Source: Dehalococcoidia bacterium (GTDB taxonomy: Bacteria; Chloroflexota; Dehalococcoidia; Lucifugimonadales; Australimonadaceae). Taken from it: a DNA stretch of 64,000 bases. Below the pieces are notes generated by a model. The model was given only the letters and a program-made list of their open reading frames with translations, did no database searches and was not told the origin of the DNA. The number at the start of each line of letters is the position of its first letter. Positions within the stretch are counted from its first letter, which is position 1. This document shows, one piece after another, positions 4,368-56,482 of this stretch. The position numbers and the translations under genes are program-made. The DNA lies in contig OZ241751.1 of NCBI GenBank assembly GCA_965201135.1, positions 1,780,248 to 1,844,247 of the forward strand. The letters are read 5' to 3'.

Positions 4368-4509
4368 CGGCTTGCGCCTCGCCTTGCTCCGGGCGGCGAT
4401 TATAGCCTACGCCCGCTGGCCGACGCGAGGAGGATCCCGCGCGGATTACCGCTTGCGTCGGAGTCCGCGCTCCATGGGAACGGCTCGCCGCCCTCCGCCC
4501 TCCTTGCGC

Positions 4510-5943
4510 CTACGACCCCAACTTCGCGTCCGCAAACGCGGCGGCGTAGAGGCGCGCCTCCTCCTCCGTCGCGCCGCCATTGATCTGCGACGTGTACGCT
4601 TCCTCGTAGGCCGCCGCGTAAGTCGCCGCCTCCTGATCCTCGCGCCCCGCGAGTTTCGCGTCGGCGTAGGACGAGGCGTAGATGTGCGCCCGGTCCTCCG
4701 ACCAGCCGGCGAGGACTTTCTGGTTGAAATAGATGCGATAATAATCCCAGGCGTAAGAGTCATGCGCGTCCTCTGCTAGCCCCTTTTCAGTGGCATAGTG
4801 GACGCCTCTGAAGTACGAATCGGCATTAAGGTATGCAGATTGATCAGAAAATCCAAGATCCACTTTCCCTAAGGCAAATATCCTAGCGTATTCATACGCA
4901 GCATACCCAGGGTTGTCCCAGCCCCTGCTCTCGGCTCTACTTAGCCCTCGGCCATAGGCATCGGCGTAGGCCGCCGCCCAGACGTAAATCTGGTGTTCCT
5001 CGGTGTAGCCTTGCTCAGGCTCCGCCCTCCAAACTGCCTCTTCGTAGCCTCTCCGGTACGCTACTCCGTAATTGATCCGCTGCAGAACGTTCTTAGAACG
5101 CGACCTCTCATAGCCGCGCACAGACGCATCGGCAAGGTTGGCCGCTTCTTCTTCCATGTTCCCACTGTAAATATATCCTGCATAGACCGAAGCGTAGACG
5201 TGAGCAGTTATTCCTGTCGCATCCGTTTGCGCGAAGGCGACCGCATAGGTTTCCTCGAACGATGCTTCGGTGGAGTCATTTTCGGATGAGAACGGCCACC
5301 AGCCGTTGCGCCGCGCCGCCTCGCTTGCGCGCCCCAGCGCATCCGCCAGCGGCAAAGGCGAATCGCCGACCACCGCCTCTGCGAAGGCTGCGGTGTAGTC
5401 CGCAAGAGCGGCTTTGTCGTCCTCTTCGGTGAAACCATTGCGGGCAGCGACAGCCGAATGGTAGACGACGCCGCTGGCATAGGCGCGAGCGTCGGCGTTG
5501 CCCAGCCTCAACGCTTTCGCATCCGCAAACGCGCCAGCGTAAGTCTCCGCGTCGCCATCCTCCAATCCTTCCGCGCCGGCATAGCCGAGCCCGGCGGTGT
5601 ACTCGGGAGGGCGTGGCGTAGGCGTGGGCGTCGCCGCAGGAGTCGGCGTTGCGGTGGGACGCGGCGTCGCAGTTGGGGTCGGCGTTGGCCGCGGCCGAGG
5701 AGTTGCGGTCGGGCGAGGCGTTGGGGTCGCGGTGGGAGACGGCGTTGCGGTTGGCGTCGCCGTTGGTCGCGGCGTCAAGGTAGGCGTTGCCGTCGGCTGC
5801 GGCGTAGGCGTGGGAGTGGGTTCCGCCGTTGGCGTGGGCGGCGGCGTAGCCGTCGGTTCGGGCGTAGGCGTAGGCGAGGCGCACCCCGCGACGATGATGA
5901 GCAGAACGGACAGACCGACGACGGCAAACGCTTTGCAAGCCAT
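4510..5943 (-). CDS. Lipoprotein with Pro/Thr-rich linker and Tyr/Ala-rich helical-repeat domain
   Basis: Start set at ATG 5943, with AGGAGG 5 nt upstream. [21 protein letters not shown] is a signal peptide plus lipobox. It is followed by a ~100-aa PT linker and then a ~330-aa domain with recurring ..YA..Y..A.. periodicity. The 3' two-thirds is visibly lower in GC. Confidence 0.75.
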
Positions 5944-5976
5944 AGAACCCTCCTGTGACACGGAGCGAAGGTGCTT

Positions 5977-6088
5977 GCAACATGTCTTCAGCCCGACGTG
6001 GCTCGACAGGAGGGCGCACGGCCCTCCGTCCGCGATAACCGAGCCACAAGCGTGCGCACGGGGCGCAGCAAGGCCTCAGACATGTTGC
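5977..6088. other. ~112-nt nested inverted-repeat (multi-stem) element in the divergent intergenic region
   Basis: Perfect 11-bp closing stem GCAACATGTCT (5977..5987) / AGACATGTTGC (6078..6088). Inner stems are GTGGCTCG (5998..6005) / CGAGCCAC (6040..6047), GGAGGGC/GCCCTCC and TGCGC/GCGCA. Confidence 0.5.
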
Positions 6089-6130
6089 GGAGCGTACTCT
6101 AGCAGGCGGGGCGGGGGATGGCAAGGGGGG

Positions 6131-6160
6131 TTGACAGGGAATGGCCAGATCAGGTAAGGT
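6131..6160 (+). promoter_or_regulatory. Sigma70-like promoter candidate for the HEPN-motif gene
   Basis: TTGACA (6131..6136), an 18-nt spacer, then TAAGGT (6155..6160). AGGAGG and the ATG at 6181 follow. Confidence 0.4.
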
Positions 6161-6180
6161 GATGGTAGGAGGCTTGGACG

Positions 6181-7089
6181 ATGCTGATCCGTGCGGAGTA
6201 CGTTGTCCGGTTGTCTACACCGATATACATCTGCCCCGACTTGGAGGGACCTGTCCCTTCGATAAAGTTCGACCGCCAGGGCTTCGCCGTTGAGATTAAC
6301 AGGTGGGGCTTCACAAGCCATCAGCCTATTCCTGACGGCGGCTTCGACCCTGGGGAAATGTCCGCTGTCAGCGTGAGGATAACAGGGGACGAACCTGGGG
6401 GGTTGACAATCAAGGCTTTGCCAAGCGACATCCAGGAGAAGTACGAGGGGGTGTTGATTGCCAGCCTCATGGAATTCGTGAATTGGGTTCGCATAAGAAC
6501 GCAACAAACGCACCTGAACAATCGGTTCCCTGTGCGGGAGTATGACGTTGTATTTTTCTCTGAAGAGGGAATTATATCTCAACAGCAAACCGTCAAAAAT
6601 CCTAGGCGCGGCGCTTTCTCGATGCACCCAGATAACTTCGTTGGTTCATTAGGGTCATGCGAATGGCAAGACATAGGCGAGTCGCTTCGCCAAGGCGGAC
6701 CGCCGCATAGCGTGGACACCTTGGTATATCAGGCCAAGGCTTTGCTCAGTGAAGGGTTCAATGGCCCTGCGCTGATCATTGCGGTCACTGCTCTTGAATA
6801 CTATTGCTGGAACGCGATTCCTGAAGATAAGCGATTCCGTAACACACATAAGGGGAAATCGCCGAAAGGGGTTAAAGAGTTATTTAAAACGCTAGTGGAG
6901 ATGATTGGCAAGGACGCCATGCTCCCCATCGACGGTAAGCTTATTGGGCAAATCATAGAACGCCGTAATGCCGTAACACATGGAAGGGAAGACGAATCCA
7001 CCCGGTCAGATATAAACTACATTATCCGCGCCATACGCGCAATTCGGAGGGAACGTTCCGGCGGTAAGCGTTCGGTGAAGCAGTCCTAG
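6181..7089 (+). CDS. Hypothetical protein with C-terminal HEPN-type (Rx4H) motif
   Basis: 302 aa, roughly 50% GC against about 70% surroundings. The C-terminal LIGQIIERRNAVTHGRE contains R-N-x3-H, the HEPN RNase signature, and is preceded by helical segments. The N-terminal ~170 aa is unrecognised. Confidence 0.7.
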   Translation: MLIRAEYVVRLSTPIYICPDLEGPVPSIKFDRQGFAVEINRWGFTSHQPIPDGGFDPGEMSAVSVRITGDEPGGLTIKALPSDIQEKYEGVLIASLMEFVNWVRIRTQQTHLNNRFPVREYDVVFFSEEGIISQQQTVKNPRRGAFSMHPDNFVGSLGSCEWQDIGESLRQGGPPHSVDTLVYQAKALLSEGFNGPALIIAVTALEYYCWNAIPEDKRFRNTHKGKSPKGVKELFKTLVEMIGKDAMLPIDGKLIGQIIERRNAVTHGREDESTRSDINYIIRAIRAIRRERSGGKRSVKQS

Positions 7090-7158
7090 TAACAGGGTGC
7101 TTTCGGTGCTTGCGCGCCGCTGGGTTCCTGCCTACGCGGGAATGACGGTAGAGAGCCC

Positions 7159-8334
7159 CTACCGGGCGACGCCTTGCGCGGTTCGGTCGTCGCCTTGCGC
7201 GGCGAGGCGGGCGGCGGCGGACGCGATGAGGCTGCCCATCGCCGTCTCCGACCAGAACCAGCGCTGGCGGTCTTCCTCGCTTTCGTTGGGGCGCCGGCAG
7301 AGGCGCGCCTCCATAAAGAACGCCTTGAGGTCGTCGCAGGCGAGGCGGAGAAAGCGGGCGGACGGCGTTCCTTCGGGCGCGTCGGGATACGGCGCGTCGT
7401 CTCCGGCGGCGAACGCCTGCATCCACCGGACGAGACCGCGAAACCGGCGCTGGGGCGTTCCGCTGAGGCCGACCATCGTGCGGCCCTTCTCCGCGACCCA
7501 GCGCTCGTAGTAGCCGCGCAGCGCGGTGACCTCGCCGGCGGGGTCGCCGTCGCGGTTGGCGGCGTCCGCTTGCGCCACGCTCGCCTGCAGGAGGACGGGA
7601 GGCGCGTCGGCGTCCTCCGGGAACTCGGCGAGCGCGGGGACGGCCTGCGCCTGCAGCAGCCCGAGCGCGGCGGCGAGAACCTTATGCTGAAAGGCGGGGG
7701 CGTCCGGCTTGCCGAGCGCGAAACCGAAGGGGAACGGCGCCCAAAGCGCGCGGGGCGGCTTCACGCGCTGCGCGTGCTCCTTGACGAGCGCGATTGCGAC
7801 GGTGGGCAAGCCCGTCTCCTCTATGGCTCGCGCCAGCACACTGACCGTGTGCGTGCAGTTCGGTCAGGTGGGCGTGAGCAGCGCGGCGTCCGCGCCCTCC
7901 TCCAGCAGGAGGCGGCCGACCTCCGGCCCCGTCTCGCTTTCGATGCGGCGGGGGCTGCGCTGCGCGCCCATAAACGAATAACAGCGCTCCGCGAGCGAGC
8001 CGACCTCTCCGCGCTCGACGAGTTCCCGCATGCGGTCTATCGGAAACGTGACGTTCACGTCGCGCATAATGCCGGTGCGGTCGAACCCGATGCTCATATG
8101 GCTCTGGATGAGGTCGGCGGCTTGGGCGCCGGACGGAATGACGCGGTAGGACTCGTCGCCGGACGAGAAGGGAGCGTCGCCGCGCAAGTGCAGCCCGGCG
8201 GTGGTGACCAGCGCGACTTTGGCCTCGGCGAGCGGCTTCGAGAACGGCGCGAACGGGGCGTCGTCGTGGTCGAACGCGGGAAAGTTCAGCATCGCCTGCC
8301 GGGCTGCGTCGGGCAGATCTTCCAATCGCGGCAT
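7159..8334 (-). CDS. GRDB-family (glycine/sarcosine/betaine/D-proline reductase component B-like) protein with in-frame TGA, candidate selenoprotein
   Basis: Track ORFs 7864..8505 and 7159..7839 share one frame and are separated only by TGA at 7864..7866. The junction reads ..EEGADAALLTPT-U-PNCTHTVSVLARAIEETGLPTVAIALVKEH.., a UxxC motif. Start set at ATG 8334, with GGAG upstream. Confidence 0.7.
7836..7852 (-). promoter_or_regulatory. SECIS-like hairpin 3' of the in-frame UGA
   Basis: The mRNA reads GCACAC-GGUCA-GUGUGC, a perfect 6-bp stem with a GGUCA loop. The stem starts 12 nt after the UGA codon. Confidence 0.4.
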
Positions 8335-9316: not shown

Positions 9317-10804
<1,488 letters not shown>

Positions 10805-13868: not shown

Positions 13869-13936
13869 TGGCTTCTCCGTTGCGGGCGTCAATAACCCCA
13901 AGCATACCCTACTGCCGTTGCCAGCGCCCTCTTGCC

Positions 13937-14188
13937 GTGATTCCCGCATAGGCGGGAATCACGTCCCATTTAAAGGCGCGCAAGCGCCTGCATCCCCCTC
14001 TCCCTAGAAGGGGAGAGGGCGCCGCGAACGTGGCGGGAGAGGGTACTGCGGACAGGGCGCAATGCGCCCCGTCATTCCCGCGAAAGCGGGAATCCCGCCC
14101 CCACTTGAGGCGCCCCAGCGCCGCAGACGGGGCGCAGCCCCGTCTCCATAGAATCCCCGGCGCATCGTCATTCCCGCGAAAGCGGGAA
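13937..14188. repeat. Palindromic repeat mosaic
   Basis: Modules A-B-C-D-E-A followed by a type II unit. The terminal GTCATTCCCGCGAAAGCGGGAA hairpin abuts the IS30 insertion. Confidence 0.9.
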
Positions 14189-18950: not shown

Positions 18951-19378
18951 CCCATAACCGTCATTCCGGCGTAGGCCGGAATCCAGAGGCGCGAAAGCGC
19001 CGCATTTCCCCTCTCCCTATAAGGGGAGAGGACGCCATAAGGGGAGAGGACGCCGCGAACGCGGCGGGAGAGGGTACTGTGGTCGGGAGGCGCAACGCGC
19101 CCCCCATAACCGTCATTCCGGCGTAGGCCGGAATCCAGAGGCGCGAAAGCGCCGCATCCCCTCTCCCTAGAAGGGGAGAGGACGCCGCGAACGCGGCGGG
19201 AGAGGGTGCTGTGGTCGGGAGGCGCAACGCGCCCCCCATAACCGTCATTCCGGCGTAGGCCGGAATCCAGAGGCGCGAAAGCGCCGCATTCCCCTCTCCC
19301 TAGAAGGGGAGAGGACGCCGCGAACGCGGCGGGAGAGGGTACTGCGGGCTGAGCGGCGGGGTTATGCAAGGGTCGCCT
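18951..19378. repeat. Tandem triplication of a composite repeat unit (152, 132 and ~115 bp), ending in a degenerate MITE right end
   Basis: The units start at 18951, 19103 and 19235 with CCCATAACCGTCATTCCGGCGTAGGCCGGAATCCAGAGGCGCGAAAGCGCC..CCCTCTCCCTA[T/G]AAGGGGAGAGGACGCCGCGAACGCGGCGGGAGAGGGT[A/G]CTGTGGTCGGGAGGCGCAACGCGCCCC. The array ends with GGGGTTATGCAAGGGTCGCC-TAGAAGGGGAGAG. Confidence 0.9.
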
Positions 19379-20245: not shown

Positions 20246-20412
20246 CGCCTTCAAGCCTCTGCGCGCCCCATGCCGCCTCCCCGCCCATGCCGCCTCTCGT
20301 GCCCCCCTTGCCTCCTGCCCGCCCCAGGCCCCTGCGCGCCCCTTGTCCCGTCATTCCGGCGTAGGCCGGAATCCAGAGGCGCGCGAGCGCCGAATTCCCC
20401 TCTCCCCTTATA

Positions 20413-21930
20413 GAGACCTTTGCATAACCCCCAAATCGGCGCGATCGGCAGTTCCGCGCCCCCGGAACAGGCCATTCGCCCGCCTAAGTCCCTCCGAATG
20501 CGGCCTCCTCCGCCCCTTCTCGCCCCCAATTTAGGGGCTTCGCAGGGCCTCGTACCGCCAACGGACAGACCACGCCCTACCCATGCGCCGCGCAACCCTC
20601 TCAATCCTTCCGCCCGCCGAAAGTTGCACGCCAACGCCTTGAACGCCTCCGCCTCGTTCCTCATTAGCCCCATGCACCTCACCCGCCAGTACCCTTAGCA
20701 GCGCTTGAGCGTCCCTAGCGCCTGCTCCACAGGCGCCCGAACCTTCGACAGCAATCGCGCACAATAACCGCAACCCCCAACCGCGAGGAGACAGCTATGC
20801 GCCTCGAAGCCAGCGACCCCTCCTTCATCGACGCCTTCCTCCCTTCCAACGCAGGCCGCAACGACAGGCTCGACCGCATCGACGCCTCATCGATTGGCCC
20901 AAAGTCGCAGCCATCCTCGACGACGTCCACGCCGCCCCCGAAGGCCGCCCCGCGTACCGCCCAGTCACGATGGTCAAGACCATCGTCCTCCAGCAGTGGC
21001 ACGACACGTCCGACGTGGGCATGGAGGAGGCGCTCCAAGACCGGCTGTCGTTCCGGCGGTTCGCGGAGCTCACGCTGACGGACGCGGTTCCGGACCACTC
21101 GACGATCAGCCGGTTTCGGAAGAAGATCACGGAGCGGGGCTGGCGCGGGCGCTGTTCGCGGAAGTGAACCGGCAGTTGGAGGCGAAGGGCATGCTGGTGA
21201 AGCGCGGAACGCTGATCGACGCGACGATCATCGAGGCGCAGGCGCGGCGTCCGCAGTCGGAGGCTGGGGCGCGGAGCGGAACGGACCCCGACGCTGCGTG
21301 GACGCGGAAGAGGAAGAAGGCGCATTCGGCTGCAGGGTGCACATCGGCATGGACGCGGGGTCGGGGCTGATACGGGGGGTTGAGTTCACGCCAGCGAACG
21401 TAGCGGACACGGAGGCAGCGGACGCGCTGATCATGGGGGACGAGGAAGCGGTGCACGCGGACAAGGCGTATGAGTCGAAGGAGCGGCGTGAGCATCTGCG
21501 TTCGCAAGGCGTGAAGGATCGGATCATGCACAGGGGGCACAAGCATCAGACGGAGCTCCGCATTGGCAGCGGAGGAGGAATGGGCTGCTGTCGAAGGTGC
21601 GGGCGCCTGTGGAGCAGGCGCTAGGGACGCTCAAGCGCTGCTAAGGGTACTGGCGGGTTCGGTATATGGGTCTCGGGATGAACGAGGCGGAGGCGTTGTT
21701 CAAGGCGCTGGGGTGCAACTTGCGACGGGCGGACGGGTTGAGAGAGGGTTGCGCTGCGCATGGGTAGGGGCGTATTGCGCCCGTTGGCGGTTTGAGGCCC
21801 TGCGAGCCCCTGAGTTGGGGGCGGGTAGGGGAGGAGGAGGCCGCGTTCGGAGGACTTGGGCGGTCGAATGGCCTGTTCCGGGGGCGCGGAACTGCCGATC
21901 GCGGCGATGCGAGGGTTATGCAAAGGTCTC
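20413..21930. mobile_element. Scrambled, degenerate IS5-family copy with an inverted ~340-bp right-end fragment fused to a 5'-truncated copy
   Basis: 20413..~20753 is the reverse complement of an IS right end and starts with GAGACCTTTGCATAACC. From ~20751 a forward copy follows that lacks the first ~25 bp of the left end and runs to GGTTATGCAAAGGTCTC at 21930. The whole element is flanked by TATA inside repeat module C. Confidence 0.8.
20797..21767 (+). pseudogene. IS5-family transposase pseudogene
   Basis: It is collinear with the intact gene at 32491..33465. It carries at least two 1-nt deletions (near 20885 and 21140) and an in-frame TAA (..LKRC*GYWRVRY..). The translation is split over track ORFs 20797.., 20970.., 20894.. 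and 21298.. Confidence 0.85.
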
Positions 21931-22141
21931 TATAGGGAGAGGGGGATTGGGCGCTTGCGCGCCTCTGGATTCCGGCCTACGCCGGAATGACGGGACAAGG
22001 GGCACGGTGGCGCTGGGCTAAGGCGGGGCGGATACGCCCTGCGGCGGGGATTGCCTGCGGGCCGTGCGGCTACGCGCAAGGCGCGCGCTCTGCTATGCTA
22101 GGCGCTCCCAAACCCCTCGCCATTGCATGGAGGAGCCGCGG

Positions 22142-26124: not shown

Positions 26125-26495
26125 ACCGTCATTCCCGCGTAGGCGGGAATCCCGCCCCATTGAGGCGCGCAAGCGCCTAATTCCCCCTCTCCCTACAAGG
26201 GGAGAGGACGCCGCGAACGCGGCGGGAGAGGGTACTGCGGTCGGGCGCAACCCGCGCCCCGTCATTCCCCCCCACCCTACCGTCATTCCTGCGTAGGCAG
26301 GAATCCATTCGGCGCGCCAGCGCCACAGACGGGGCGCGGGGCGCCCCGTCTCCCCTGATCCCCCGCCCCACGTCATTCCCGCGAAAGCGGGAACCTACTG
26401 GAACACATCCACGCGCCGCGCAAGCCCAGGCAGGCCTCGCCCCGCGCGACGGGGATGCGAGATTCCCGCCTATGCGGGAATGACGGGGCGCGTCG
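26125..26495. repeat. Palindromic repeat mosaic
   Basis: Modules A-B-C (CCCTCTCCCTACAAGGGGAGAGG)-D-E, a type II unit, and a terminal reverse module A. Confidence 0.9.
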
Positions 26496-26566
26496 CGCCT
26501 CGCCCCCAATCCTCCCCCCGCACCGCCCGCGCCCTCACCCGCCGCCGACCTCTTCCGTTCGAGTCC

Positions 26567-27364
26567 CTAATCCCAGCGGGTGGACGGCTTCGGCTCGAGC
26601 GCGCCGTCCACGTAGACGTCCGCCTTGCCTTGCGCGAAGCAGACGTAGCCCGCGATCTTCGCCGCCTCCGCCGTCGGATAGCGGTACGTCCACGCGGCGC
26701 TCTCGACCGTCGCGCCGCCCGCCTCGACGTGGAGCATCTCCGCCTCGCCCTTGTACGGCGACCCAACGACGCGCCCGCTCGGACGCAGCGCCTCCATGCG
26801 AACGTCGGCGCCGGGGATGTAGTAGCGATGCGGAAGCCCCGTCTCCAGCAGCAGCACGGGCGCGCTCGTCTCCGCGACGACCGCGCCGTTGACCTCGACC
26901 CTGACGCGGCGGGAACTCCGAAGGCAGTCGATCCGCGTGTACGGGTCTTTCGGCCCCGTGAAGACCTCCTCTTCCTCCTCGAACCAGGCGTCCATCTTGC
27001 CCCAGTAGAGCCCGACGTAGTCCCGCGCGTCCACGCAGCCCTCGAGCGGCTCCGGGTAGCGCCAGACCGCGTTCTCCTCGACGCGCTCGCCGACCTTGAC
27101 GCTCCAGTACTGGGCGTCTCCCTTGATTGGTCAGCGCGACGAGTGCGCCGTCTCCTCGAGGAACTCCCATCGGACGTCGCGCGTCGGGAGGTAGTACACG
27201 GGCTGATGGCGCGTCTCGTGCATAATGACGGCGCTCGTCGTGTCCGCGATCGTCTCGCCGCCGAAGACGGCGCGAATGCGCTTCGGCGTCGGCTCCAGGA
27301 ACGCGCGATGCTCCTCCGCCGCGCTCGCCGCGCCCGCCTCCCGCGCCCTAAACGCTTGCGTCAT
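26567..27364 (-). CDS. Two-domain DUF427-family protein with in-frame TGA at the conserved Cys position (candidate selenoprotein or point-mutated pseudogene)
   Basis: Track ORFs 27131..27415 and 26567..27034 share one frame, and the only stop between them is TGA at 27131..27133. The junction reads ..YYLPTRDVRWEFLEETAHSSR-U-PIKGDAQYWSVKVGER.., and DUF427 normally has ..C-P-x-K-G-x-A-x-Y.. here. Start at ATG 27364 after AGGAGA. Confidence 0.6.
27098..27118 (-). promoter_or_regulatory. SECIS-like hairpin 3' of the in-frame UGA of the DUF427 gene
   Basis: The mRNA reads GACGCCC-AGUACU-GG-A-GCGUC. This gives a 5-bp stem plus a 2-bp stem with one bulged A, and the loop contains GU. The stem starts 12 nt after the UGA codon, the same spacing as in the GRDB-like gene. 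Confidence 0.35.
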
Positions 27365-27413
27365 CGGCTCTCTCCTTTCCGTAGACCTTGCCTGCCCCCG
27401 TCCCTCCCAGAGC

Positions 27414-27511
27414 ACCCTCTCCCGCCGCGTTCGCGGCGTCCTCTCCCCTTCTAGGGAGAGGGGGATTCGGCGCTTGCGCGCCTCTGGATTCCGGCCTACG
27501 CCGGAATGACG
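27414..27511. repeat. Palindromic repeat unit (reverse orientation D-C-B-A)
   Basis: CCCTCTCCCGCCGCGTTCGCGGCGTCCTCTCCCCTTCTAGGGAGAGGGGGATTCGGCGCTTGCGCGCCTCTGGATTCCGGCCTACGCCGGAATGAC. Confidence 0.9.
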
Positions 27512-27562
27512 TCAGGTTTACGCAAGGTCTCTTTTGCGATTCCGCGCATCGTCCGCGCCCGG

Positions 27563-28621
27563 CTAGTTCCAGATCGTGACGCCCATCAGCACGTCGCCGT
27601 GGTGCACGTCCGCAATCGCCTCGTTGATCTGCTCGAATCCGTAGCGTTTCGTGATGAACGAGCCCAACTCGATGCGTCCCTGCGCCACGAGGTCGAGCAC
27701 CTCGGTGACGTCGCTCGTCCGGCGCATCGCCACCCCTGTCACTTTGATCTCCTTGAAGGGGAAGCGCGAATCGTTGATCGTGATCGGGCCGGGGGGCATC
27801 GCGCCGACGACGGTCGCCGTTCCGGTGGGGCGCGTCGCCCGCACGATCTGGTCGGCGGTCGCGGGGTTGCCGATCGCCTCGAACGTCTTGCGCGCCCCGC
27901 CTTTCGTGATCTCCACCGTCGCCTCGACGGGGTCCTCGGACGAGGCGTTGACGACGTGCGTCGCGCCGTAGGAGAGCGCCGCCTCCAACTTGGTTCCGAC
28001 GACATCGACGGCGACGATGGGGTAGGCGCCGAACAGCCGCAGCATCTGAATGATGTTCAGGCCGACGCCGCCGCAGCCGATCACCATCGCGGACTCGCCG
28101 GGGGCGAGTTGCGCGCCGTTCTTCACGGCGTTGTAGGCGGTCGTCACGCGGCAGCCGACGATGCTGGACTCCTCGAGGCCAACGCCGTCCGGCAGGTGAA
28201 AGACCATATAGGCGGGCACGGAGAGCGTTTGCGTGAAGCCCCCGACGTTCCAGCGCGTCACCTCCGCGCCGTTCGGCCTGACGTAGGGGGAGCCGAGCGG
28301 CATTTGCTGGCAGAGGTTCGGCAGCCCTGTTATGCAGAACTCGCACCGCCCGCAGCGGAAGCGCATGCCGACGGTGACGCGGTCGCCTTCCTTGAAATGC
28401 TCGCGCTGATTCTTGCCCGCGCCCGCGACGACGCCGGAGACCTCGTGCCCCAGCACGGCGGGCAGGCTGGTGGGGATGGAGCCGTCCTGCACCTTGAGGT
28501 CGGTGTGGCAGACGCCGCAGGCGGACACCTGCAGCAGCACGTCGTCGTCCTCCACGAGCGGGTCGCGGAAGTCTTCAATTGCGAGGTCCTGGTCGATGTC
28601 CTGCATCACGGCGGCTTTCAT
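27563..28621 (-). CDS. Zinc-dependent alcohol dehydrogenase (MDR family)
   Basis: Carries CGVCHTDL and GHEVSGVV zinc-ligand motifs and a GCGGVG Rossmann motif. Confidence 0.85.
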   Translation of the reverse strand: MKAAVMQDIDQDLAIEDFRDPLVEDDDVLLQVSACGVCHTDLKVQDGSIPTSLPAVLGHEVSGVVAGAGKNQREHFKEGDRVTVGMRFRCGRCEFCITGLPNLCQQMPLGSPYVRPNGAEVTRWNVGGFTQTLSVPAYMVFHLPDGVGLEESSIVGCRVTTAYNAVKNGAQLAPGESAMVIGCGGVGLNIIQMLRLFGAYPIVAVDVVGTKLEAALSYGATHVVNASSEDPVEATVEITKGGARKTFEAIGNPATADQIVRATRPTGTATVVGAMPPGPITINDSRFPFKEIKVTGVAMRRTSDVTEVLDLVAQGRIELGSFITKRYGFEQINEAIADVHHGDVLMGVTIWN

Positions 28622-30335: not shown

Positions 30336-32033
30336 ATGTACGACCTGCTGATCAGGAACGGCCGAGTCGCCGACGGATCGGGAATGCCGTCGTTCCACGC
30401 CGACGTCGGCGTCGTGGACGGGCGCGTGGCGGACATGGGGCGCCTCTCCGGTCCGACGCGCCGCGAGATCGACGCGGAGGAGCGCGTCGTCGCCCCCGGC
30501 TTCATCGACAATCACTGCCACTTCGACGCGCAGGCGACGTGGGACCCGCTCTGCACGTTCTCTCCGCAGCACGGCGTCACGTCCGTCATCTTCGGCAACT
30601 GCTCGCTCACGCTCGCGCCGGTCAAGCCCGACGACCACGACGCGCTTGCGATGATGCTCTCGCGGGTCGAGGCGATTCCGATGGAGAGCCTGCAGGCGGG
30701 CATTCCGTGGGAGTGGACGACGTTCGGGGGCTACCTGGACTATCTCGACCGGCGGCTGGGCGTGAACGCGGGCGCGCTCGTGGGGCACTCCGCCGTCCGC
30801 AGATGGGTTATGGGCGACGACGCCCATCAGCGCGCCGAGGCGACTCCCGCCGAAATGGAGGAGATGAAGAGCCTCGTCCGCGACTCCGTGCGGCAGGGCG
30901 CGCTCGGCGTTTCGTTCAACCGGAACAGCGGGCACATGGACTTGCTTGGGCGCCCGATTCCGGGCATCGTTCCGCCGGTCGACGAGTTGTACGAACTCGC
31001 GGGGGCGCTCCGTGACGTCGGGGCCGGGGTCGTGCAGTGCGGCGCGGCGTACCCGCTCGAGATCCGTGACGGCTTCGCCACGAAACTGGGCGAGCGGTCG
31101 CAGCGGCCGGTCGTCTACAACCAGATCGTGCACAACGCGAGCGAGCCCGACCGCTGGCGGACGCATATGGAGATCGTGGAGCGCGGCATCGCCGAGGGGC
31201 GGCAGGTGTACCCGGTGGTGAATCCGCGTCCGTCGGCGCAGCGGTTCACGATGCGGAACGCGCAGGTGTTCGACCGCCTTCCCGCGTGGCGCGAGGTGAT
31301 GCTGGGGTCGGTCGAGGAGAAGGCGGCGGCGTTCCGCGACCCGGCGACGCGGAGCCGTCTGCGGGCGGAGGCGGTCGAGGGGCGCGACTTGCCGACGGGG
31401 GCGCTGCCGATCAACTGGGAGCGCATCTTCATCACGCGGACGCTGAAGGAGCGCAACGCCGCCTACAAGGGCATGAGCGTCGCGCAGGTGGCGGCGGCGC
31501 AGAACAAGGACATGCTCGACGGCTTTCTCGACCTCGTGCTGGACGAGGATCTGGGCACGGGGCTGCAGAACAGCCAGTCGGGGGCGGACGGCGGCGTGAT
31601 GGGGCGGCTCGTGGCGAGCCCGCACACGGTGATCGGGCTGTCGGACGCGGGGGCGCACGTGGTGTTCGAGGCGGGCTACGGCTACAGCACGCTGGTGCTG
31701 GGGCACTGGGTTCGGGACGAGGGCGCGCTCTCGCTGGAGGAGGCCGTCCGCAAATTGTCGTTTATGCAGGCGTCGCTCTTCGGGCTGCACGACCGCGGCC
31801 TGTTGCGCCCGGGCTACGCCGCCGACGTCGTCGTCTTCGATCCGGAGACCGTCGCCGCGGAGGAGCCGGACGAGGTGAGCGACCTTCCCGGCGGGCTGAC
31901 GCGCCTGCGCCAGAAGGCGGTCGGCGTGGACTACACCATCGTCAACGGCGAGGTTCTGCTGGAGGCCGGGGAGCACACGGGGGCCTTCCCGGGGCGGACG
32001 CTCCGCAGCCGCGCGCCCGTCGCGGCGGGCTGA
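30336..32033 (+). CDS. N-acyl-D-amino-acid deacylase (D-aminoacylase) family amidohydrolase
   Basis: Start at ATG 30336 after GAGGAGGG. MYDLLIRNGRVADGSG..APGFIDNHCHFD is the HxH metal site. 565 aa. Track ORF 29979.. fuses it artificially to the vapC remnant frame. Confidence 0.8.
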   Translation: MYDLLIRNGRVADGSGMPSFHADVGVVDGRVADMGRLSGPTRREIDAEERVVAPGFIDNHCHFDAQATWDPLCTFSPQHGVTSVIFGNCSLTLAPVKPDDHDALAMMLSRVEAIPMESLQAGIPWEWTTFGGYLDYLDRRLGVNAGALVGHSAVRRWVMGDDAHQRAEATPAEMEEMKSLVRDSVRQGALGVSFNRNSGHMDLLGRPIPGIVPPVDELYELAGALRDVGAGVVQCGAAYPLEIRDGFATKLGERSQRPVVYNQIVHNASEPDRWRTHMEIVERGIAEGRQVYPVVNPRPSAQRFTMRNAQVFDRLPAWREVMLGSVEEKAAAFRDPATRSRLRAEAVEGRDLPTGALPINWERIFITRTLKERNAAYKGMSVAQVAAAQNKDMLDGFLDLVLDEDLGTGLQNSQSGADGGVMGRLVASPHTVIGLSDAGAHVVFEAGYGYSTLVLGHWVRDEGALSLEEAVRKLSFMQASLFGLHDRGLLRPGYAADVVVFDPETVAAEEPDEVSDLPGGLTRLRQKAVGVDYTIVNGEVLLEAGEHTGAFPGRTLRSRAPVAAG

Positions 32034-32300: not shown

Positions 32301-32423
32301 CCGCGATGGGCGCGGGGGCATAGGGGTGGGTAGGTTCCCGCTTTCGCGGGAATGACGGGGCGCGTTGCGCCCCAACCGCAGTACCCTCTCCCGCCGCGTT
32401 CGCGGCGTCCTCTCCCCTTATAG

Positions 32424-33629
32424 GAGACCTTTGCATAACCTTCCGCAATCGCGCACAATGACCGCAACCCGCAACCGCGAGGAGACTGCTATGCATCTCG
32501 AAGCCAGCGACCCCTCCTTCATCGACGCCTTCCTCCCTTTCAACGCAGGCCGCAACGACAGACTCGACCGCATCGACCGCCTCATCGATTGGCCCAAAGT
32601 CGCAGCCCTACTCGACGATGTCCACGCCGCGCCCGAAGGACGGCCCGCCTACCGCCCGATCACGATGGTCAAGATCATCGTCCTCCAGCAGTGGTACGAC
32701 TCCTCCGACGTCGGCATGGAGGAGGCGCTCCAAGACCGGCTGTCGTTCCGCCGCTTCGCGGAGCTCACGCTGACGGACGCGGTTCCCGACCACTCGACGA
32801 TCAGCCGGTTTCGGAAGAAGATCACGGAGCGGGGGCTGGCGCGGGCGCTGTTCGCGGAAGTGAATCGGCAGTTGGAGGCGAAGGGCATGCTGGTGAAGCG
32901 CGGAACGCTGATCGACGCGACGATCATCGAGGCGCAGGCGCGGCGCCCGCATTCGGAGGCTGGAGCGCGGAGCGGAACGGACCCCGACGCCGCGTGGACG
33001 AAGAAGGGGAAGAAGTCGCATTTCGGCTACAAGATGCACATAGGGATGGACGCGGGGTCAGGGCTGGTGCGCGGGGTTGAGTTCACGCCTGCGAACGTTG
33101 CGGACACGGATGTTGCGGACGCGCTGATCATGGGGGACGAAGAGGCGGTGTACGCGGACAAGGCGTATGAGTCGAAGGAGCGTCGTGAGCGTCTGCGGGC
33201 GCAGGGCGTGAAGGATCGGATCATGCATCGGGGGCATAAGCATCAGACGGAGCTGCCGCATTGGCAGCGGCGGCGGAACGGGCTGCTGTCGAAGGTTCGG
33301 GCGCCGGTGGAGCAGGTGTTTGGGACGCTGAAGCGCAGCTATGGGTACTGGCGGGTTCGGTACATGGGGCTAATGAGGAACGAGGCGGAGGCGTTGTTCA
33401 AGGCGCTGGCGTACAACCTGCGGCGCGCGGACGGGTTGAGAGAGGGTTGCGCTGTGCATGGGTAGGGGCGTATTGCGCCCGTTGGGGGTACGAGGCCCTG
33501 CGAAGCCCCTAAATTGGGGGCGAGCAGGGGAGGTGGAGGCCGTTATCGGGGGATTTGGGCGGTTGAATGGCTGATTCCGGGGGCGCGGAACTGCCGATCG
33601 CGCTGATGCGAGGGTTATGCAAAGGACTC
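32424..33629 (+). mobile_element. Intact IS5-family insertion sequence (1206 bp)
   Basis: Terminal inverted repeats are GAGACCTTTGCATAACC (32424..) and GGTTATGCAAAGGACTC (..33629). There is a 5-bp direct repeat TATAG at 32419..32423 and 33630..33634. It is inserted in the loop of repeat module C (CCTCTCCCCT-TATAG / TATAG-GGAGAGGGGG). Confidence 0.9.
32491..33465 (+). CDS. IS5-family DDE transposase
   Basis: Start at ATG 32491. ..TMVKIIVLQQWYDSSDVGMEEALQDRLSFRRFA..LIDATIIEA..ADKAYES..VEQVFGTLKRSYGY.. are typical IS5-group motifs. Confidence 0.9.
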   Translation: MHLEASDPSFIDAFLPFNAGRNDRLDRIDRLIDWPKVAALLDDVHAAPEGRPAYRPITMVKIIVLQQWYDSSDVGMEEALQDRLSFRRFAELTLTDAVPDHSTISRFRKKITERGLARALFAEVNRQLEAKGMLVKRGTLIDATIIEAQARRPHSEAGARSGTDPDAAWTKKGKKSHFGYKMHIGMDAGSGLVRGVEFTPANVADTDVADALIMGDEEAVYADKAYESKERRERLRAQGVKDRIMHRGHKHQTELPHWQRRRNGLLSKVRAPVEQVFGTLKRSYGYWRVRYMGLMRNEAEALFKALAYNLRRADGLREGCAVHG

Positions 33630-33714
33630 TATAGGGAGAGGGGGAATGCGGCGCTTATGCGCCCGACTGGATTCCTTGCTACGCAGGCAGGCGGCGGGTT
33701 ATGCAAAAGTTCCG

Positions 33715-36742: not shown

Positions 36743-37150
36743 GACCGTCATTCCCGCGCAAGCGGGAATCTCGCCCCATTGAGGCGCGCAAGCGCCGAAT
36801 TCCCCCTCTCCCTATAGGGGAGAGGACGCCGCAAACGCGGCGGGAGAGGGTACTGCGGACGGGGCGCGTAGCGTCCCGTCATTCCCCACCCTTACCGTCA
36901 TTCCGGCGTAGGCCGGAATCCATTCGGCGCCCCAGCGCCACAGACGGGCGCAAGCCCGTCTCCATAGATCCCCCGGGCGCCTCGTCATTCCCGCGAAAGC
37001 GGGAACCTACCCCCGCGCCGCTTCCCCTCTACCGTCATTCCGGCGTAGGCCGGAATCCATTCGGCGCCCCAGCGCCACAGACGGGCGCAAGCCCGTCTCC
37101 ATAGATCCCCCGGGCGCCCCGTCATTCTCGCGAAAGCGGGAACCTACCCC
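36743..37150. repeat. Palindromic repeat mosaic containing a tandem duplication of a ~120-bp type II unit
   Basis: Modules A-B-C-D-E are followed by two near-identical copies (36894..37014 and 37031..37150) of ACCGTCATTCCGGCGTAGGCCGGAATCCATTCGGCGCCCCAGCGCCACAGACGGGCGCAAGCCCGTCTCCATAGATCCCCCGGGCGCC.CGTCATTC.CGCGAAAGCGGGAACCTACCCC. Confidence 0.9.
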
Positions 37151-37492: not shown

Positions 37493-38538
37493 CCTCCCCC
37501 GCCATCCTCATCGTCGCCCCCACGAAGCGCGAACTCGGCGGCCTGCGCGAAACGAACGCCCGCTCTTCCCTCTCCGCAGCGAAACGCGAAGAGAACGCCC
37601 GCGCCCCTATTCGCGAAACAGAACGCGATGAAGACGCCTACGCCGCCGAACGCGAGATCGAGCGCGAGACGGACGACCGCGCTCGAATTGCCCTTTGCGG
37701 AATCGGGCGCGAAGCCGGAGAGCGCGTCGCCGCCCTCCTGGACGCCGCCCCATGCTCCCTGGTCGTCTCGCTTGGCTTCGCAGGCGCCCTCGACCCCGCC
37801 CTCCGCCCCGGCGCCCTCATCGTCGCCGACGCCTTCCTCTACGCCGACGCGCCCCCTCTAGCCCCGCCCGCCCCCCTCTCCCTACAGAGACCTTTGCATA
37901 ACATACCGTCATTCCGGCGTAGGCCGGAATCCAGAGGCGCGCAAGCGCCGAATCCCCCTCTCCCTATAAGGGGAGAGGACGCCGCGAACGCGGCGGGAGA
38001 GGGTACTGCGGACGGGGCGGCGGGGTTATGCAAAGGTCTCCTACAAGGGGAGAGGGCGGGGGAGAGGGTACTGGCGACAGGAGATGAGCGAAGCATTGAC
38101 GGGGCGCAGCCCCGTCTCCACGATGAATCATCGGGCCGCGTCATTCCCGCGAAAGCGGGAACCTACCCCTCCGGCGCGCTCCTCACCGTCGACGCGCCCC
38201 TCCTTACGCCCGCCGCCAAGCGCCGCGCGCGAGCCGCATCCGGCGCCGCCGTCGTGGATATGGAGGGGCGCCGCATCGCCGAGGCCGCAGCCGAGCGCGG
38301 CGTCCCCATCGTCGCCGTCCGCGCCGTGATCGACGAGGCCGACTTCGCGCTCCCGCCGTTCGCCGCCGAAATCGCCGCCGCACGCGGACACGACGAACGG
38401 GCGCGCGCGTTCCGCGCCGCCGCCAACCCCCGCGAGGCCGCCGGCATGCTCCTCCTCGCGCTCCGCGCCCGAAAAGCCGCCCGCAGCCTCCGCCGCGCCG
38501 CCGACGCCATCCTCGCCGCCCAGCCGGAGCGCCCGTGA
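37489..38538 (+). CDS. hpnG: Hopanoid-associated phosphorylase (HpnG-like) carrying a ~100-codon in-frame repeat/MITE insertion
   Basis: The N-terminal part reads ..ALCGIGREAGERVAALLD..LVVSLGFAGALDPALRPGALIVADAFL. The C-terminal part reads ..GALLTVDAPLLTPAAKRRARAASGAAVVDMEGRRIAEAAAERGVPIVAVRAVIDEAD. Both match the nucleoside-phosphorylase-like HpnG layout. The segment ~37870..38168 between them is made of the intergenic repeat modules. Confidence 0.7.
   Translation: MTSPAILIVAPTKRELGGLRETNARSSLSAAKREENARAPIRETERDEDAYAAEREIERETDDRARIALCGIGREAGERVAALLDAAPCSLVVSLGFAGALDPALRPGALIVADAFLYADAPPLAPPAPLSLQRPLHNIPSFRRRPESRGAQAPNPPLPIRGEDAANAAGEGTADGAAGLCKGLLQGERAGERVLATGDERSIDGAQPRLHDESSGRVIPAKAGTYPSGALLTVDAPLLTPAAKRRARAASGAAVVDMEGRRIAEAAAERGVPIVAVRAVIDEADFALPPFAAEIAAARGHDERARAFRAAANPREAAGMLLLALRARKAARSLRRAADAILAAQPERP
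37887..38030. mobile_element. MITE (144 bp) with IS5-family terminal repeats, inside the hpnG reading frame
   Basis: GAGACCTTTGCATAAC ... GTTATGCAAAGGTCTC ends. There is a 5-bp direct repeat CTACA at 37882..37886 and 38031..38035, and the flanks reconstitute module C (CCCTCTCC-CTACA-AGGGGAGAGG). The interior consists of modules A-B-C-D-E. Confidence 0.85.
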
Positions 38539-39521: not shown

Positions 39522-39637
39522 CGCGGCGGCGCGCCTGCCCGCGCCCCCGAATCGCGTATCCTACCGCCGATGTCCCGCAACGAAGCCGACACCAGAGCGC
39601 AACTCATCGCTAGGCCGGCAGGGCGAATGATGGAATA

Positions 39638-42301
39638 ATGATGCTGCTACGACATACCCCCCCCCCGAATTTTCGCCGGGGTTCCGCTATGAGAGCGCTC
39701 GCGCCGCACTGGGGCGCGCTGCTTGGGCTTGCGCTGTTTCTTATCGCGGGGCTCGCCGTTCTCGACGACTACGGCGCTCACTGGGATGAGTTCGTTCACC
39801 GGCAAACCGCCGAGGCGAGTCTGCGTTATCTCACGGACGGCGACTTCGGCGCTTTCACAAGCGGGCTCTATGTAGACCATGAGAAGTTCTACGGTATGGC
39901 GTTCGAGGCGCCTCTTCCGCTGATCGAGCGCGCGTTCGGCATAGACGACGCCCCGCGCGCAGTCCATATAAGCCGGCATTTGCACTCTCGCCTGCTCTTT
40001 CTCGCAGGCGGACTCTTCGCCTACCTGCTGGCCCTCCGGCTGTCCGGCAGCCGGTTGCTTGCCCTTGCGGCGATGCTGCTGTTTCTGCTGCATCCGCGCC
40101 TCTACGCGCATTCGTTCTTCAACAGCAAAGACATTCCGTTCCTCGTGATGTTCGTCATCGCGCTCTATCTGACGCATCGGGCGTTCAGAAGGGACAAGGT
40201 TTCCGCGTTCGTTCTGCTGGGCGTTGGGGTTGGGCTGCTGGTGAATCTCCGCATTATGGGCGTCGTTCTGCTTGCGGCGGTTCCCGCGCTGCGAGCGCTG
40301 GACTTCGCGCTGGCGTCGGGCTGGGCGGAGCGCAAGCGCATTCTTCTTACGACCGGGGGATTCGCGTTTGCCGGCGCGCTAACCGTCTACGCGTTGCTGC
40401 CGTATCTATGGGGCGACCCGATCGGGCGCGCGGCGGAGTGGTGGACGACGCTCTCCAATCATCCCAACGTCGTCTCGGAACTGTTTCGCGGAACATTGTA
40501 TCACAGCGACGGCTTCCCCGTCGAGTATTTGCCGGTCTGGTTCTCCATCACGAGTCCGCCGTTCGCGCTGCTGCTGGGAGCCGTCGGGGCCGCAAGCGTC
40601 CTCGTCCATGCGGCTCGGGCTCCGCGCAACGCGCTGCGGAGCGGAAGGCTGCGGTTCGCGCTGCTGCTCGTCGCCTGCTTCGCGCTGCCTGTCTTGGCGG
40701 TGATGCTGCCCGGCGGCAACATCTACAACGGCTGGCGGCAGACGTACTTTCTGTGGGCGCCGTTCGCGCTGCTATCCGCGTTGGGGCTCCGGTGGATGGC
40801 TAGCGCGCTCGGCGGAAGGGCGCGAATAGCGGTCTACGGGGCGGCTGGCGCGGGATTCGCGGCGACGGTCATTTCGATGGCGTTGATCCATCCGAACCAG
40901 CAGACCTATTTCACTTTCTTCGTGGACAGGGTTGCGCCGGATCATCTGCGCTCGCAATACTCGATGGCCTATTGGGATCATACGATCCGGCAGGGACTCG
41001 AATGGGTTGTCATGCGTTCGGCGCAATCTTCGGACGGGCCGCGCCTGGGAACGGCGAACCGCTCATCCTGGGTTGTCGAGAATGCGCTGGTTCTGCCGGA
41101 GTCCGCGCGTGAACGCTTGGCCAACGCGGCTCCGTTCACTACCGCTCCGGGACGACCCGCTATGTCGTGGGCGCGCTCCGCCCGCGAATTGCATCGGGTG
41201 GAAGTCTACGGGAACACGCTGTGGACCGTTGAGTCGCAGGACAACCTCCGCAGCGTCTACGAATCTGTCCACGGGCGGGAGCCTGCGGTTGACGGCGCGT
41301 TCGACGTCCATCGCATTGACGGGGCGCTGGCGCTCGTGATGGAGCCGTGCGCTCCGGCGTTCGTGGAGAGGCGGGGATGGTTGACCGCGCGCGCGTTTCC
41401 CGTCGATCCCGCCGACCTGCCGCCCTGGCGGCGCGGCGAGACGTTCGAGCCGCGCAGTTTTTGGCTGGCGGACTACGGGGCGCACTTCGACGGCAAGTGC
41501 GTCGCGTCGCTCCCTCTTCCGGCGTACCCCGTCGCCGATTTCGAGTTGCGCTGGCCGCAGCCGGAACTGCTGGACGCCGGCGAGGCGCGGGAGAAAGCGC
41601 GGCGGGCGAGAGAGCAAGGGCGTCTGCTGGCGAGCGCCGAGTATGACGTTTACCTGGCGGACGGCGAGTTGGTCTACGTCAACGATGCGTGCGATCCGCT
41701 CGATACGGAGCAGCCGTTCGAACTGATCGCGCACCCGGAGCGGGCGGAGGACTTGCCGGAGGCCCTGCGGAGACAGGGCTACGAGTGGTTCGGACTCTAT
41801 TTCCACAAGTACGGCGCGTTCGTGGACGGCGGATGCGTCGCGTTCTTCCCCTTGCCGGACTACCCCATCGCGTCCATTCGGACGGGGCAATCCATAGAGG
41901 GCGGCGGGGAGTGGAGAGCAGGGTTCGCGTTGAACGCCGAACCCTACCGCTTGGCGTATGATGCCGCCGTATCCGGCGAGCCGCTGGCGCAGGGCGCGTT
42001 CGACGTCTACCTATCGGACGGGGCGTTGGTCTACGTCAAAGAGCCGTGCGCGCAGTCGGATACGGACGCCAAGTTCTTCTTGCATATCAGGCCGGAGCAA
42101 GTCGCCGATTTGCCTGAGGAGCGGAGAGAGAGCGGGTTCGACAACTTGGACTTCGATTTCTTTCCGAACGGGGCGCTGTTCGATGGACGATGCGCGGCGC
42201 GGGTTCCTCTGCCGGAGTACGTCGTCGCGTCCATACGGACGGGGCAGTACGTAGGCGGCGTTGGGGAGATATGGAGCGCGGAGTTCGCGGTCGGGAGGTG
42301 A
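39638..42301 (+). CDS. GT-C-fold (ArnT/PMT-like) membrane glycosyltransferase with triple C-terminal repeat domain
   Basis: 887 aa. The N-terminal ~450 aa is polytopic, with the early loop AVLDDYGAHWDEFVHR as in GT-C enzymes. The C-terminal ~400 aa holds three ~100-aa repeats (..FDVYL.DG.LVYVKEPC...DT.A.FFLHI.PE...DLPEERR.SGFDNLDFDFFP.GALF.G.C.A..PLP.Y..ASIRTGQ..). Confidence 0.7.
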   Translation: MMLLRHTPPPNFRRGSAMRALAPHWGALLGLALFLIAGLAVLDDYGAHWDEFVHRQTAEASLRYLTDGDFGAFTSGLYVDHEKFYGMAFEAPLPLIERAFGIDDAPRAVHISRHLHSRLLFLAGGLFAYLLALRLSGSRLLALAAMLLFLLHPRLYAHSFFNSKDIPFLVMFVIALYLTHRAFRRDKVSAFVLLGVGVGLLVNLRIMGVVLLAAVPALRALDFALASGWAERKRILLTTGGFAFAGALTVYALLPYLWGDPIGRAAEWWTTLSNHPNVVSELFRGTLYHSDGFPVEYLPVWFSITSPPFALLLGAVGAASVLVHAARAPRNALRSGRLRFALLLVACFALPVLAVMLPGGNIYNGWRQTYFLWAPFALLSALGLRWMASALGGRARIAVYGAAGAGFAATVISMALIHPNQQTYFTFFVDRVAPDHLRSQYSMAYWDHTIRQGLEWVVMRSAQSSDGPRLGTANRSSWVVENALVLPESARERLANAAPFTTAPGRPAMSWARSARELHRVEVYGNTLWTVESQDNLRSVYESVHGREPAVDGAFDVHRIDGALALVMEPCAPAFVERRGWLTARAFPVDPADLPPWRRGETFEPRSFWLADYGAHFDGKCVASLPLPAYPVADFELRWPQPELLDAGEAREKARRAREQGRLLASAEYDVYLADGELVYVNDACDPLDTEQPFELIAHPERAEDLPEALRRQGYEWFGLYFHKYGAFVDGGCVAFFPLPDYPIASIRTGQSIEGGGEWRAGFALNAEPYRLAYDAAVSGEPLAQGAFDVYLSDGALVYVKEPCAQSDTDAKFFLHIRPEQVADLPEERRESGFDNLDFDFFPNGALFDGRCAARVPLPEYVVASIRTGQYVGGVGEIWSAEFAVGR

Positions 42302-52646: not shown

Positions 52647-52875
52647 GTCATTCCCGCGCCATTCCCGTCATCCCGCGCCCTCTACCGTCATTCCCGCGTA
52701 GGCGGGAACCCCGCCCCATTGGAGGCGCGCAAGCGCCGCATCCCCCTCTCCCTATAAGGGGAGAGGACGCCGCGAACGCGGCGGGAGAGGGTACTGCGGA
52801 CGGGGCGCAATCGCGCCCCGTCTCCTTATACCGCAAGTGCCTCGTCATTCCCGCATAGGCGGGAACATACCCCCT
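52647..52875. repeat. Palindromic repeat mosaic
   Basis: Modules A-B-C (CCCTCTCCCTATAAGGGGAGAGG)-D-E-A. Confidence 0.9.
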
Positions 52876-56305: not shown

Positions 56306-56482
56306 GCGGCATCCTGTCTGCCCGCCGCAGGTATTGTGGAGACGAGACTGGCGCCCGACGGGATTCCCGCCTGCGCGGGCAGGGAGGACCAAGGCGGTTC
56401 CGCAAGGGCGGCAAGGAGGCGGCGAAAGCGAGCGGCGCGGGGGCGGTATACTCGTTGGGCCGGCAGGGAGAATAATGGAATA

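Follow-up and report, generated by a model that had tools for sequence, protein, structure and literature searches.

Within a 64-kb window of a Dehalococcoidia bacterium genome (contig OZ241751.1; 'the window' denotes this whole analysed stretch of DNA), the minus-strand region 27364..26567 very probably represents a functional selenoprotein gene in which a UGA codon is read as selenocysteine (Sec). The gene encodes two domains of the DUF427 family (PF04248), and the sole interruption of its frame is a TGA codon at 27133..27131. Three observations argue for this assignment: the TGA recurs at the identical column in related genes that otherwise encode Cys there, a stem-loop downstream of it is conserved at synonymous sites, and the sequence on either side evolves under purifying selection.

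A DUF427 gene with a single in-frame TGA codon

The features of the gene are as follows.
27376..27372, minus strand: Shine–Dalgarno-like AGGAG, 7 nt 5′ of the ATG, from direct reading of the sequence
27364..26567, minus strand: predicted Sec-containing DUF427 gene, 265 codons plus a TAG stop, with two DUF427 domains in its translation
27364..27362, minus strand: ATG start codon, read from the sequence
27277..27002, minus strand: first DUF427 domain (Pfam match), residues 30–121, with residue 78 (U78) in the turn U-P-I-K-G
27133..27131, minus strand: in-frame TGA at residue 78, next base C; TGA in 12 relatives, Cys in the other tandem homologues
26911..26627, minus strand: second DUF427 domain (Pfam), approximately residues 152–246, limits approximate; residues 158–244 align to PDB 3DJM
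26761..26759, minus strand: codon of Ser202 in the motif GSPYKGEA, in place of the second Cys of the Cys forms
26569..26567, minus strand: TAG stop codon, read from the sequence

When the TGA was translated as an amino acid, the resulting protein matched PF04248 in two stretches (E value 3.8e-63, 209.8 bits against a gathering cut-off of 22.1). A sequence-only reading of this stretch had described one frame split by a single TGA, with the junction ..LEETAHSSR-[TGA]-PIKGDAQYWSVKV.., and a Ser at the equivalent position of the second domain (SPYKGEA); both are as described in the sequence and its translation. Approximately 13 other genes in the window (G+C ~69 %) end at TGA as a normal stop, and the standard-code open reading frames (ORFs) of the window returned full-length Pfam matches, which shows that the genetic code has not been reassigned.

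In the mechanism that we propose, the UGA would be recoded as Sec during translation, with a stem-loop 12 nt downstream (7-bp stem, 6–7-nt loop opening with A/G-G-U) acting as a bacterial Sec insertion sequence (SECIS). By analogy with the established bacterial mechanism, SelB carrying GTP and Sec-tRNA(Sec) would bind the hairpin apex and supply Sec while the UGA occupies the A site. The product would have 265 residues and two DUF427 domains of the beta-tent fold, in which Sec78 stands in for the Cys of the first-domain C-P-x-K-G turn, while the second-domain Cys appears to have been lost and is now Ser.

The TGA codon occupies the column of a conserved cysteine

We compared 160 related loci, drawn from both genome and metagenome sequences, pooling the C-P-x-K-G column of both domains. 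Cys is found in this column with few exceptions; the tally for the 80 metagenome loci was 99 Cys, 7 His, 4 Ser and 4 TGA. At the TGA column, the Cys forms read H-x-T-x-C-P-[FY]-K-G-D-A-x-Y-W, and full-length Cys homologues (~274 aa, 45–55 % identity) are exemplified by the Rubrobacter tropicus protein P0003 (H-T-T-H-C-P-F-K-G-D-A-S-Y-W). The alignment thus bears out the earlier proposal, made from the sequence and the family motif, that the TGA sits exactly at the conserved DUF427 Cys.

The TGA is present at the identical column in 12 relatives (55–85 % identity), none of which has any other stop and all of which retain both flanking frames intact. Five of them lie on Dehalococcoidia chromosomes of five different species (L001–L005, 85–69 % identity), four on metagenome contigs with identity down to 55 % (L081, L082, L083 and L117) and three on contigs reached through the protein (L161–L163). 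All relatives of at least 55 % identity that could be read through, 12 in number, carry TGA, while the remaining tandem homologues are essentially all Cys. The alternation of TGA and Cys that the sequence-only reading had proposed looking for is therefore present, and the close relatives with TGC that it had named as contrary evidence were not encountered among these 12, which are also free of other disabling mutations. In a neighbour-joining tree that also included 96 Cys forms, the 12 full-length Sec forms grouped as a single clade. The N-terminal MTQ start is kept in 11 of the 12 relatives; the frame of L082 was not trimmed to the MTQ start.

The second-domain position is Ser in all Sec forms except L161, which keeps Cys. 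A clade-wide resolving Cys was not found in the Sec forms: C110 and C147 occur often but not throughout, with neither present in L117, C147 missing from L082 and L083, and C110 missing from L161. Separately, a subgroup of seven loci (L123, L128, L132, L136, L145, L149 and L154) has His-Pro-Gly-Lys-Gly in the first domain and keeps the second-domain Cys, a mirror image of the Sec clade, where the first site stays and the second is lost.

Public protein records reflect the interruption. Among the top 120 matches of a protein search, all of those above ~60 % identity are C-terminal fragments of 155–175 aa (24 clusters, roughly 400 member sequences by our tally), because gene callers stop at the TGA. 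The fragments are named 'DUF427 domain-containing protein', and Sec is never flagged. Reading the TGA as Sec would set right the public records of an entire clade, now listed as truncated fragments.

The sequence-only reading had itself raised the alternative that a TGC/TGT-to-TGA point mutation made the locus a pseudogene, to which a sequencing error in a Cys-form gene may be added. A single base change does turn TGC or TGT into TGA, and gene callers handle the locus as broken. Against this, the same TGA stands in 13 independently assembled sequences with up to 45 % protein difference, a divergence that also rules out copies of one contaminated assembly, and additional stops or frameshifts are lacking.

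A conserved stem-loop follows the TGA codon

Two RNA elements were delineated downstream of the TGA.
27118..27098, minus strand: SECIS-like upper hairpin GACGC-CC[AGUACU]GG-(A)-GCGUC, starting 12 nt past the UGA, with 19 nt from UGA to loop
27130..27090, minus strand: possible extended SECIS, with a lower helix CC(A/G)AUC / GGUCGG around the upper hairpin and one A.C mismatch in the window

The hairpin GACGCCC-AGUACU-GG(A)GCGUC, which had been predicted 12 nt after the TGA, was accordingly located at 27118..27098. Its description as a bulged hairpin with GU in the loop holds for the window and a few other sequences, whereas most relatives have a perfect stem of 7 bp. The 13 TGA forms have in common the sequence TGA CCN RTY AAR GGA GAC GCY CRG TAY TGG AGC GTC AAR GTY GG, and 8 of the 13 form the perfect stem GACGCUC/GAGCGUC with a loop of (A/C)GUA(C/U)UG. 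In the window, L001, L083, L161 and L162, a C replaces the U, giving CC/GG pairs, a bulged A and a loop of (A/G)GUACU. The stem GACGC/GCGUC is found in 12 of the 13; in L163 the 5′ arm is GGCGC, where a change of D to G turns an A-U pair into G-U and pairing is kept despite the change in the peptide. Likewise, the hairpin is unchanged in L161, although P-I-K upstream of it has become A-I-R.

We applied by hand the published constraints for bacterial SECIS elements (PMC13188914), in which a G within the first two loop positions is usually followed by G or U, with the following outcome.
Apical loop: 3–9 nt required, 6–7 nt found
Upper stem: 4–16 bp required, 7 bp found
G in the first two loop positions: found at position 2, followed by U
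UGA to loop: 16–37 nt required, 19 nt found
Minimum free energy: −7.5 kcal/mol or lower required, −11.7 kcal/mol found

Genes of the Cys form that encode the same PxKGDAxYWSV peptide lack the hairpin. In 19 such genes, the codons used are GGC, TCG and GTG, with AGC in 2 of the 19, and the mean fold is −6.9 kcal/mol; all 10 TGA-form genes that match the peptide pattern use GGA, AGC and GTC and fold at −11.7 kcal/mol. Over the Sec forms, the synonymous difference reaches its gene-wide minimum in the 12-codon window from residue 79 (0.19 versus 0.42 overall), and synonymous divergence (dS) across residues 79–91 is 0.36 versus 1.0–1.2 elsewhere. Conservation of the downstream hairpin among TGA forms, a check that had been suggested with the original prediction, is thus seen at synonymous sites. 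Given this synonymous minimum, the codon contrast with the Cys forms and the pairing kept through peptide changes, neither the peptide nor the G+C content accounts for the hairpin.

The possible lower helix is paired in 94 % of cells and shows one compensatory change, C-G to U-A in L117, which is not statistically significant.

Purifying selection on both sides of the TGA codon

Ratios of nonsynonymous to synonymous divergence (dN/dS), like the dS values above, are Nei–Gojobori estimates over the Sec forms.
Residues 20–77, N-terminal domain before the TGA: dN/dS 0.24
Residues 92–110, between the hairpin and the earliest start codon available downstream in the window: dN/dS 0.25
Residues 111–265, remaining protein: dN/dS 0.20

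Within the hairpin codons, dN/dS is 0.13. Purifying selection at dN/dS ~0.2 on either side of the TGA excludes a pseudogene, and the selective conservation of synonymous sites over the hairpin points the same way; with no further disabling mutation in the gene, the pseudogene alternative was not borne out, and we regard it as almost certainly wrong.

A second explanation is that of a split gene, in which a 77-residue N-terminal peptide and a C-terminal protein starting at a downstream GTG or ATG are made separately, the hairpin serving another purpose, for instance coupling or reinitiation. Gene finders split the gene into two ORFs in all relatives, and the hairpin alone does not prove SelB binding. 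The stop, however, falls exactly at the conserved Cys codon and would cut the beta-hairpin of the first domain. Moreover, the earliest start available after the TGA in the window is a GTG at 27034, and the intervening 32 codons are selected as protein, as measured over residues 92–110; in a split gene this stretch would not be translated, and its evolution as protein is a strong argument against this explanation. The first downstream start also varies among relatives, giving fragments of 155, 166, 171, 174 or 175 aa. We therefore consider a split gene very unlikely, and retain translation through the UGA with insertion of Sec as the preferred explanation.

A second TGA-containing gene in the window

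The window contains another gene interrupted by TGA, of the PrdB/GrdB-like family.
8334..7159, minus strand: PrdB/GrdB-like gene with an in-frame TGA (PF07355, E value 1.4e-10; TIGR04483, E value 1.1e-46)
7866..7864, minus strand: its TGA codon; a 46 %-identical homologue has Cys (TPT-C-PFCTHT)
7852..7836, minus strand: hairpin GCACAC-GGUCA-GUGUGC, starting 11 nt past the UGA

Its protein would carry U-x-x-C where the 46 %-identical homologue has C-x-x-C, and from these sequence features we identify 8334..7159 as a second predicted selenoprotein gene in the window. Close relatives of the gene are also annotated as fragments ending at the TGA, and two of them share a chromosome or contig with Sec-DUF427 genes, matched on equal size (2,799,163 for L005 and 121,716 for L162). 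No Pfam domain was detected in the C-terminal half of the protein (~230 aa). The PrdB/GrdB-like and DUF427 genes are alike in having a UGA followed by C, a hairpin 11–12 nt downstream, a loop of (G/A)-G-U and Cys homologues (at ~46 % identity for the PrdB-like gene); they differ in that the PrdB/GrdB-like family is unrelated to DUF427 and already known to contain Sec. The identical hairpin spacing claimed for the two genes in the sequence-only reading needs correction, as the PrdB/GrdB-like hairpin starts 11 nt past the TGA and not 12.

Two further TGA junctions in the window were rejected as selenoprotein candidates: 9317..9319 and 32031..32033 separate adjoining genes, in the first case an amino-acid permease followed by a release factor 1 (RF-1)-domain (ArfB-like) protein and in the second an amidohydrolase followed by an 88-aa ORF.

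Evidence bearing against Sec insertion

Several results weigh against a Sec-decoded UGA. Taken by itself, the window hairpin is unremarkable when compared with shuffled sequences (z = −1.68; 15 of 200 shuffles fold equally well), and the case for a hairpin beyond chance is therefore comparative. Base-pair covariation was not significant, with 95 % of cells paired and changes no better than in shuffles; the near-invariant stem, in which the changes amount to one compensatory and one A-U to G-U, accounts for this, so that the RNA evidence is one of conservation. Rfam returned no match at gathering thresholds over the whole window or at permissive thresholds over the hairpin, a miss that is uninformative because the PrdB-like hairpin, used as a control, has no Rfam SECIS match either. 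Finally, neither the 64-kb window (tRNA scan and Pfam annotation of 41 ORFs) nor the retrieved loci of the Sec clade contained selA, selB, selD or tRNA-Sec. The window has no tRNA gene of any kind.

The loci were scanned for Sec machinery using aragorn and tblastn with Escherichia coli SelA, SelB and SelD as queries over 161 sequences. The sole Sec-machinery gene recovered was a selB homologue beside a Cys-form gene in L037, an Actinomycetota metagenome-assembled genome (MAG); it aligns with E. coli SelB over 642 aa at 33 % identity. The tandem DUF427 gene of L037 (3010–3807, plus strand) is convergent with selB (3833–5647, minus strand) at a distance of 26 nt, an adjacency that is probably a coincidence. 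A SelB-like match in L003 was rejected as a TypA/BipA-type GTPase on its N-terminal motif, judged by eye.

The absence of Sec machinery from the window and the Sec-clade loci is also a point for a third explanation, selenium-free readthrough, in which Cys or Trp would be placed at the UGA by a suppressor or near-cognate tRNA, aided by the hairpin. UGA followed by C is a leaky context, and insertion of Cys at Sec codons under selenium limitation can occur in other bacteria. Such readthrough gives no reason for a Cys codon to have been replaced and for TGA then to have been kept clade-wide. The hairpin, in turn, fits the SECIS model in its spacing and in the G-U start of its loop, and the same arrangement occurs in the classical selenoprotein family represented by the PrdB-like gene, in the same genomes. 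We consider this third explanation very improbable. Sec decoding in this organism receives indirect backing from the predicted PrdB-like selenoprotein gene, from its co-occurrence with Sec-DUF427 genes and from the Sec-rich character of the Dehalococcoidia, MAGs of which have been credited with 46–49 selenoprotein genes (BSepDB paper, PMC13326102). The DUF427 gene would add to these large selenoproteomes.

Protein fold and a predicted role for U78

For structural comparison, the Cys homologue P0003 was modelled in place of the window protein (AlphaFold, predicted local distance difference test 91.4). The model matched PDB 3DJM (Foldseek E value 5e-10, template modelling score 0.87–0.92 on the target), as did the window protein by sequence (E value 1.3e-09), and the Cys equivalent to U78 lies in a beta-hairpin turn, where a strand ends. 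Foldseek also returned weak matches of the P0003 model to Mis18/yippee and RIG-I C-terminal domains; MsrB was absent from its matches. DUF427 has been placed in the beta-tent fold together with MsrB, Mis18/yippee, the RIG-I C-terminal domain and the cereblon CULT domain, and is described there as being without the zinc site (PMC4287342).

A comparison with MsrB (selenoprotein R), the other family of this fold that has Sec forms, suggests itself, since both belong to the beta-tent fold class (PMC4287342) and offer a single Cys/Sec as the candidate reactive residue. The window protein has no sequence similarity to MsrB and no zinc site, and nothing points to methionine-sulfoxide reductase activity. 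An MsrB/SelR identity found no support, as Pfam gives PF04248 alone, Foldseek gives no MsrB and DUF427 lacks the zinc site.

Sec almost always stands in for a catalytic, redox-active Cys, and U78 would on that ground be a reactive nucleophile or redox centre. From known bacterial selenoproteins, we infer both this redox role and the dependence of Sec insertion on SelB. By the same analogy, the N-terminal domain alone may be active in the Sec clade. The tandem proteins as a whole suggest that each of the two domains carries a site.

DUF427 has a solved structure (3DJM), occurs in bacteria and fungi and has no known function. The Sec/Cys pair leads to the testable hypothesis that DUF427 uses the Cys of its C-P-x-K-G turn as active residue; if true, it would provide a first clue to what this widespread domain does. 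The combined proposal, that DUF427 is an uncatalogued selenoprotein family, that the C-P-x-K-G Cys is its catalytic redox or nucleophilic residue family-wide and that activity in the Sec clade is concentrated in the first domain, is one that we favour by a narrow measure.

Relation to known selenoprotein genes

The gene resembles in-ORF SECIS genes of the E. coli fdhF type in having a UGA at a conserved Cys, a stem-loop right after it and G-U opening a small loop. In the E. coli fdhF element, a bulged U lies on the 5′ side; the bulge of the DUF427 hairpins, where present, is instead an A in the 3′ arm. Like the Sec/Cys families recognized by comparative genomics, the DUF427 genes have widespread Cys homologues and public annotation cut at the UGA. 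As a protein, the product is similar to other DUF427/PF04248 proteins (3DJM from Rhodobacter sphaeroides; tandem Cys forms such as P0003) in its two domains, in its 45–55 % identity to the tandem Cys forms and in the motifs that it has in common with them (E-T-x-L-P-x-R-Y-Y-I-P..D-V, [C/U]-P-x-K-G-x-A-x-Y and W-x-Y), differing in the predicted Sec for Cys of domain 1 and the Ser for Cys of domain 2.

What sets the gene apart from known bacterial selenoprotein genes is its protein family, which lies outside the 2026 catalogue (PMC13188914): neither DUF427 nor PF04248 is among the prokaryotic families tabulated in that May 2026 review. No model of NCBIfam (June 2026) matched the window protein. 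A literature search on DUF427, PF04248 and COG2343, with BSepDB and supplementary tables outside its scope, found no report of a Sec form. We regard the DUF427 Sec form as a genuine selenoprotein family that is probably unreported. The recoding mechanism proposed for it is the ordinary bacterial one; the new part is the protein family.

Gene neighbourhood and other features of the window

Two features lie directly upstream of the DUF427 gene.
28621..27563, minus strand: Zn-dependent alcohol dehydrogenase (ADH)-family gene (Pfam ADH_N, ADH_zinc_N)
27395..27539: copy of a dispersed modular repeat between the ADH and DUF427 genes (inverted-repeat pairs I1, I2, I9 and I10)

The Zn-ADH gene is directly upstream in 6 of the 13 Sec-clade loci (the window, L001, L002, L004, L081 and L163; 78–93 % identity) and is the sole recurring conserved neighbour of the Sec form. 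Across 163 loci, no family-wide conserved neighbour of DUF427 genes was found (largest cluster, 8). The spacer between the ADH and DUF427 genes measures 200 nt in the window because the repeat is inserted there, compared with ~30 nt in L002 and L004; the repeat copy is not part of the Sec mechanism.

Modular intergenic repeats of ~45–145 nt are dense in the window, with at least 12 copies in both orientations (e.g. 681–884, 2275–2412, 13935–14113, 18958–19369, 26126–26500, 27395–27539, 36745–37150, 37906–38166 and 52685–52870). Their units are palindromic (CCGTCATTCCSGCGTAGGCSGGAATCC, GGCGCGCAAGCGCC, CCCTCTCCCTAGAAGGGGAGAGG and CGCCGCGAACGCGGCG). They look like a repetitive extragenic palindromic (REP) element or a miniature inverted-repeat transposable element (MITE), and copies lie on both sides of the DUF427 gene and give rise to spurious ORFs.

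An insertion sequence with a DDE_Tnp_1/DUF772 transposase and terminal inverted repeats is present in two copies of ~90 % identity (20328–22013 and 32306–33644; repeat pairs D15–D17, I3, I4, I7 and I11). Two paralogous large membrane proteins with a PMT_2 (dolichyl-phosphate-mannose mannosyltransferase-like) domain are encoded on the plus strand at 39614–42301 and 56306–59182, with long stretches of DNA that are 69–86 % identical. Lastly, the region 4400–7150, adjoining a PLD-like gene (3576–4406), has a G+C of ~0.63 versus 0.69 and no ORF with the high third-position G+C typical of the genome, and may be foreign DNA.

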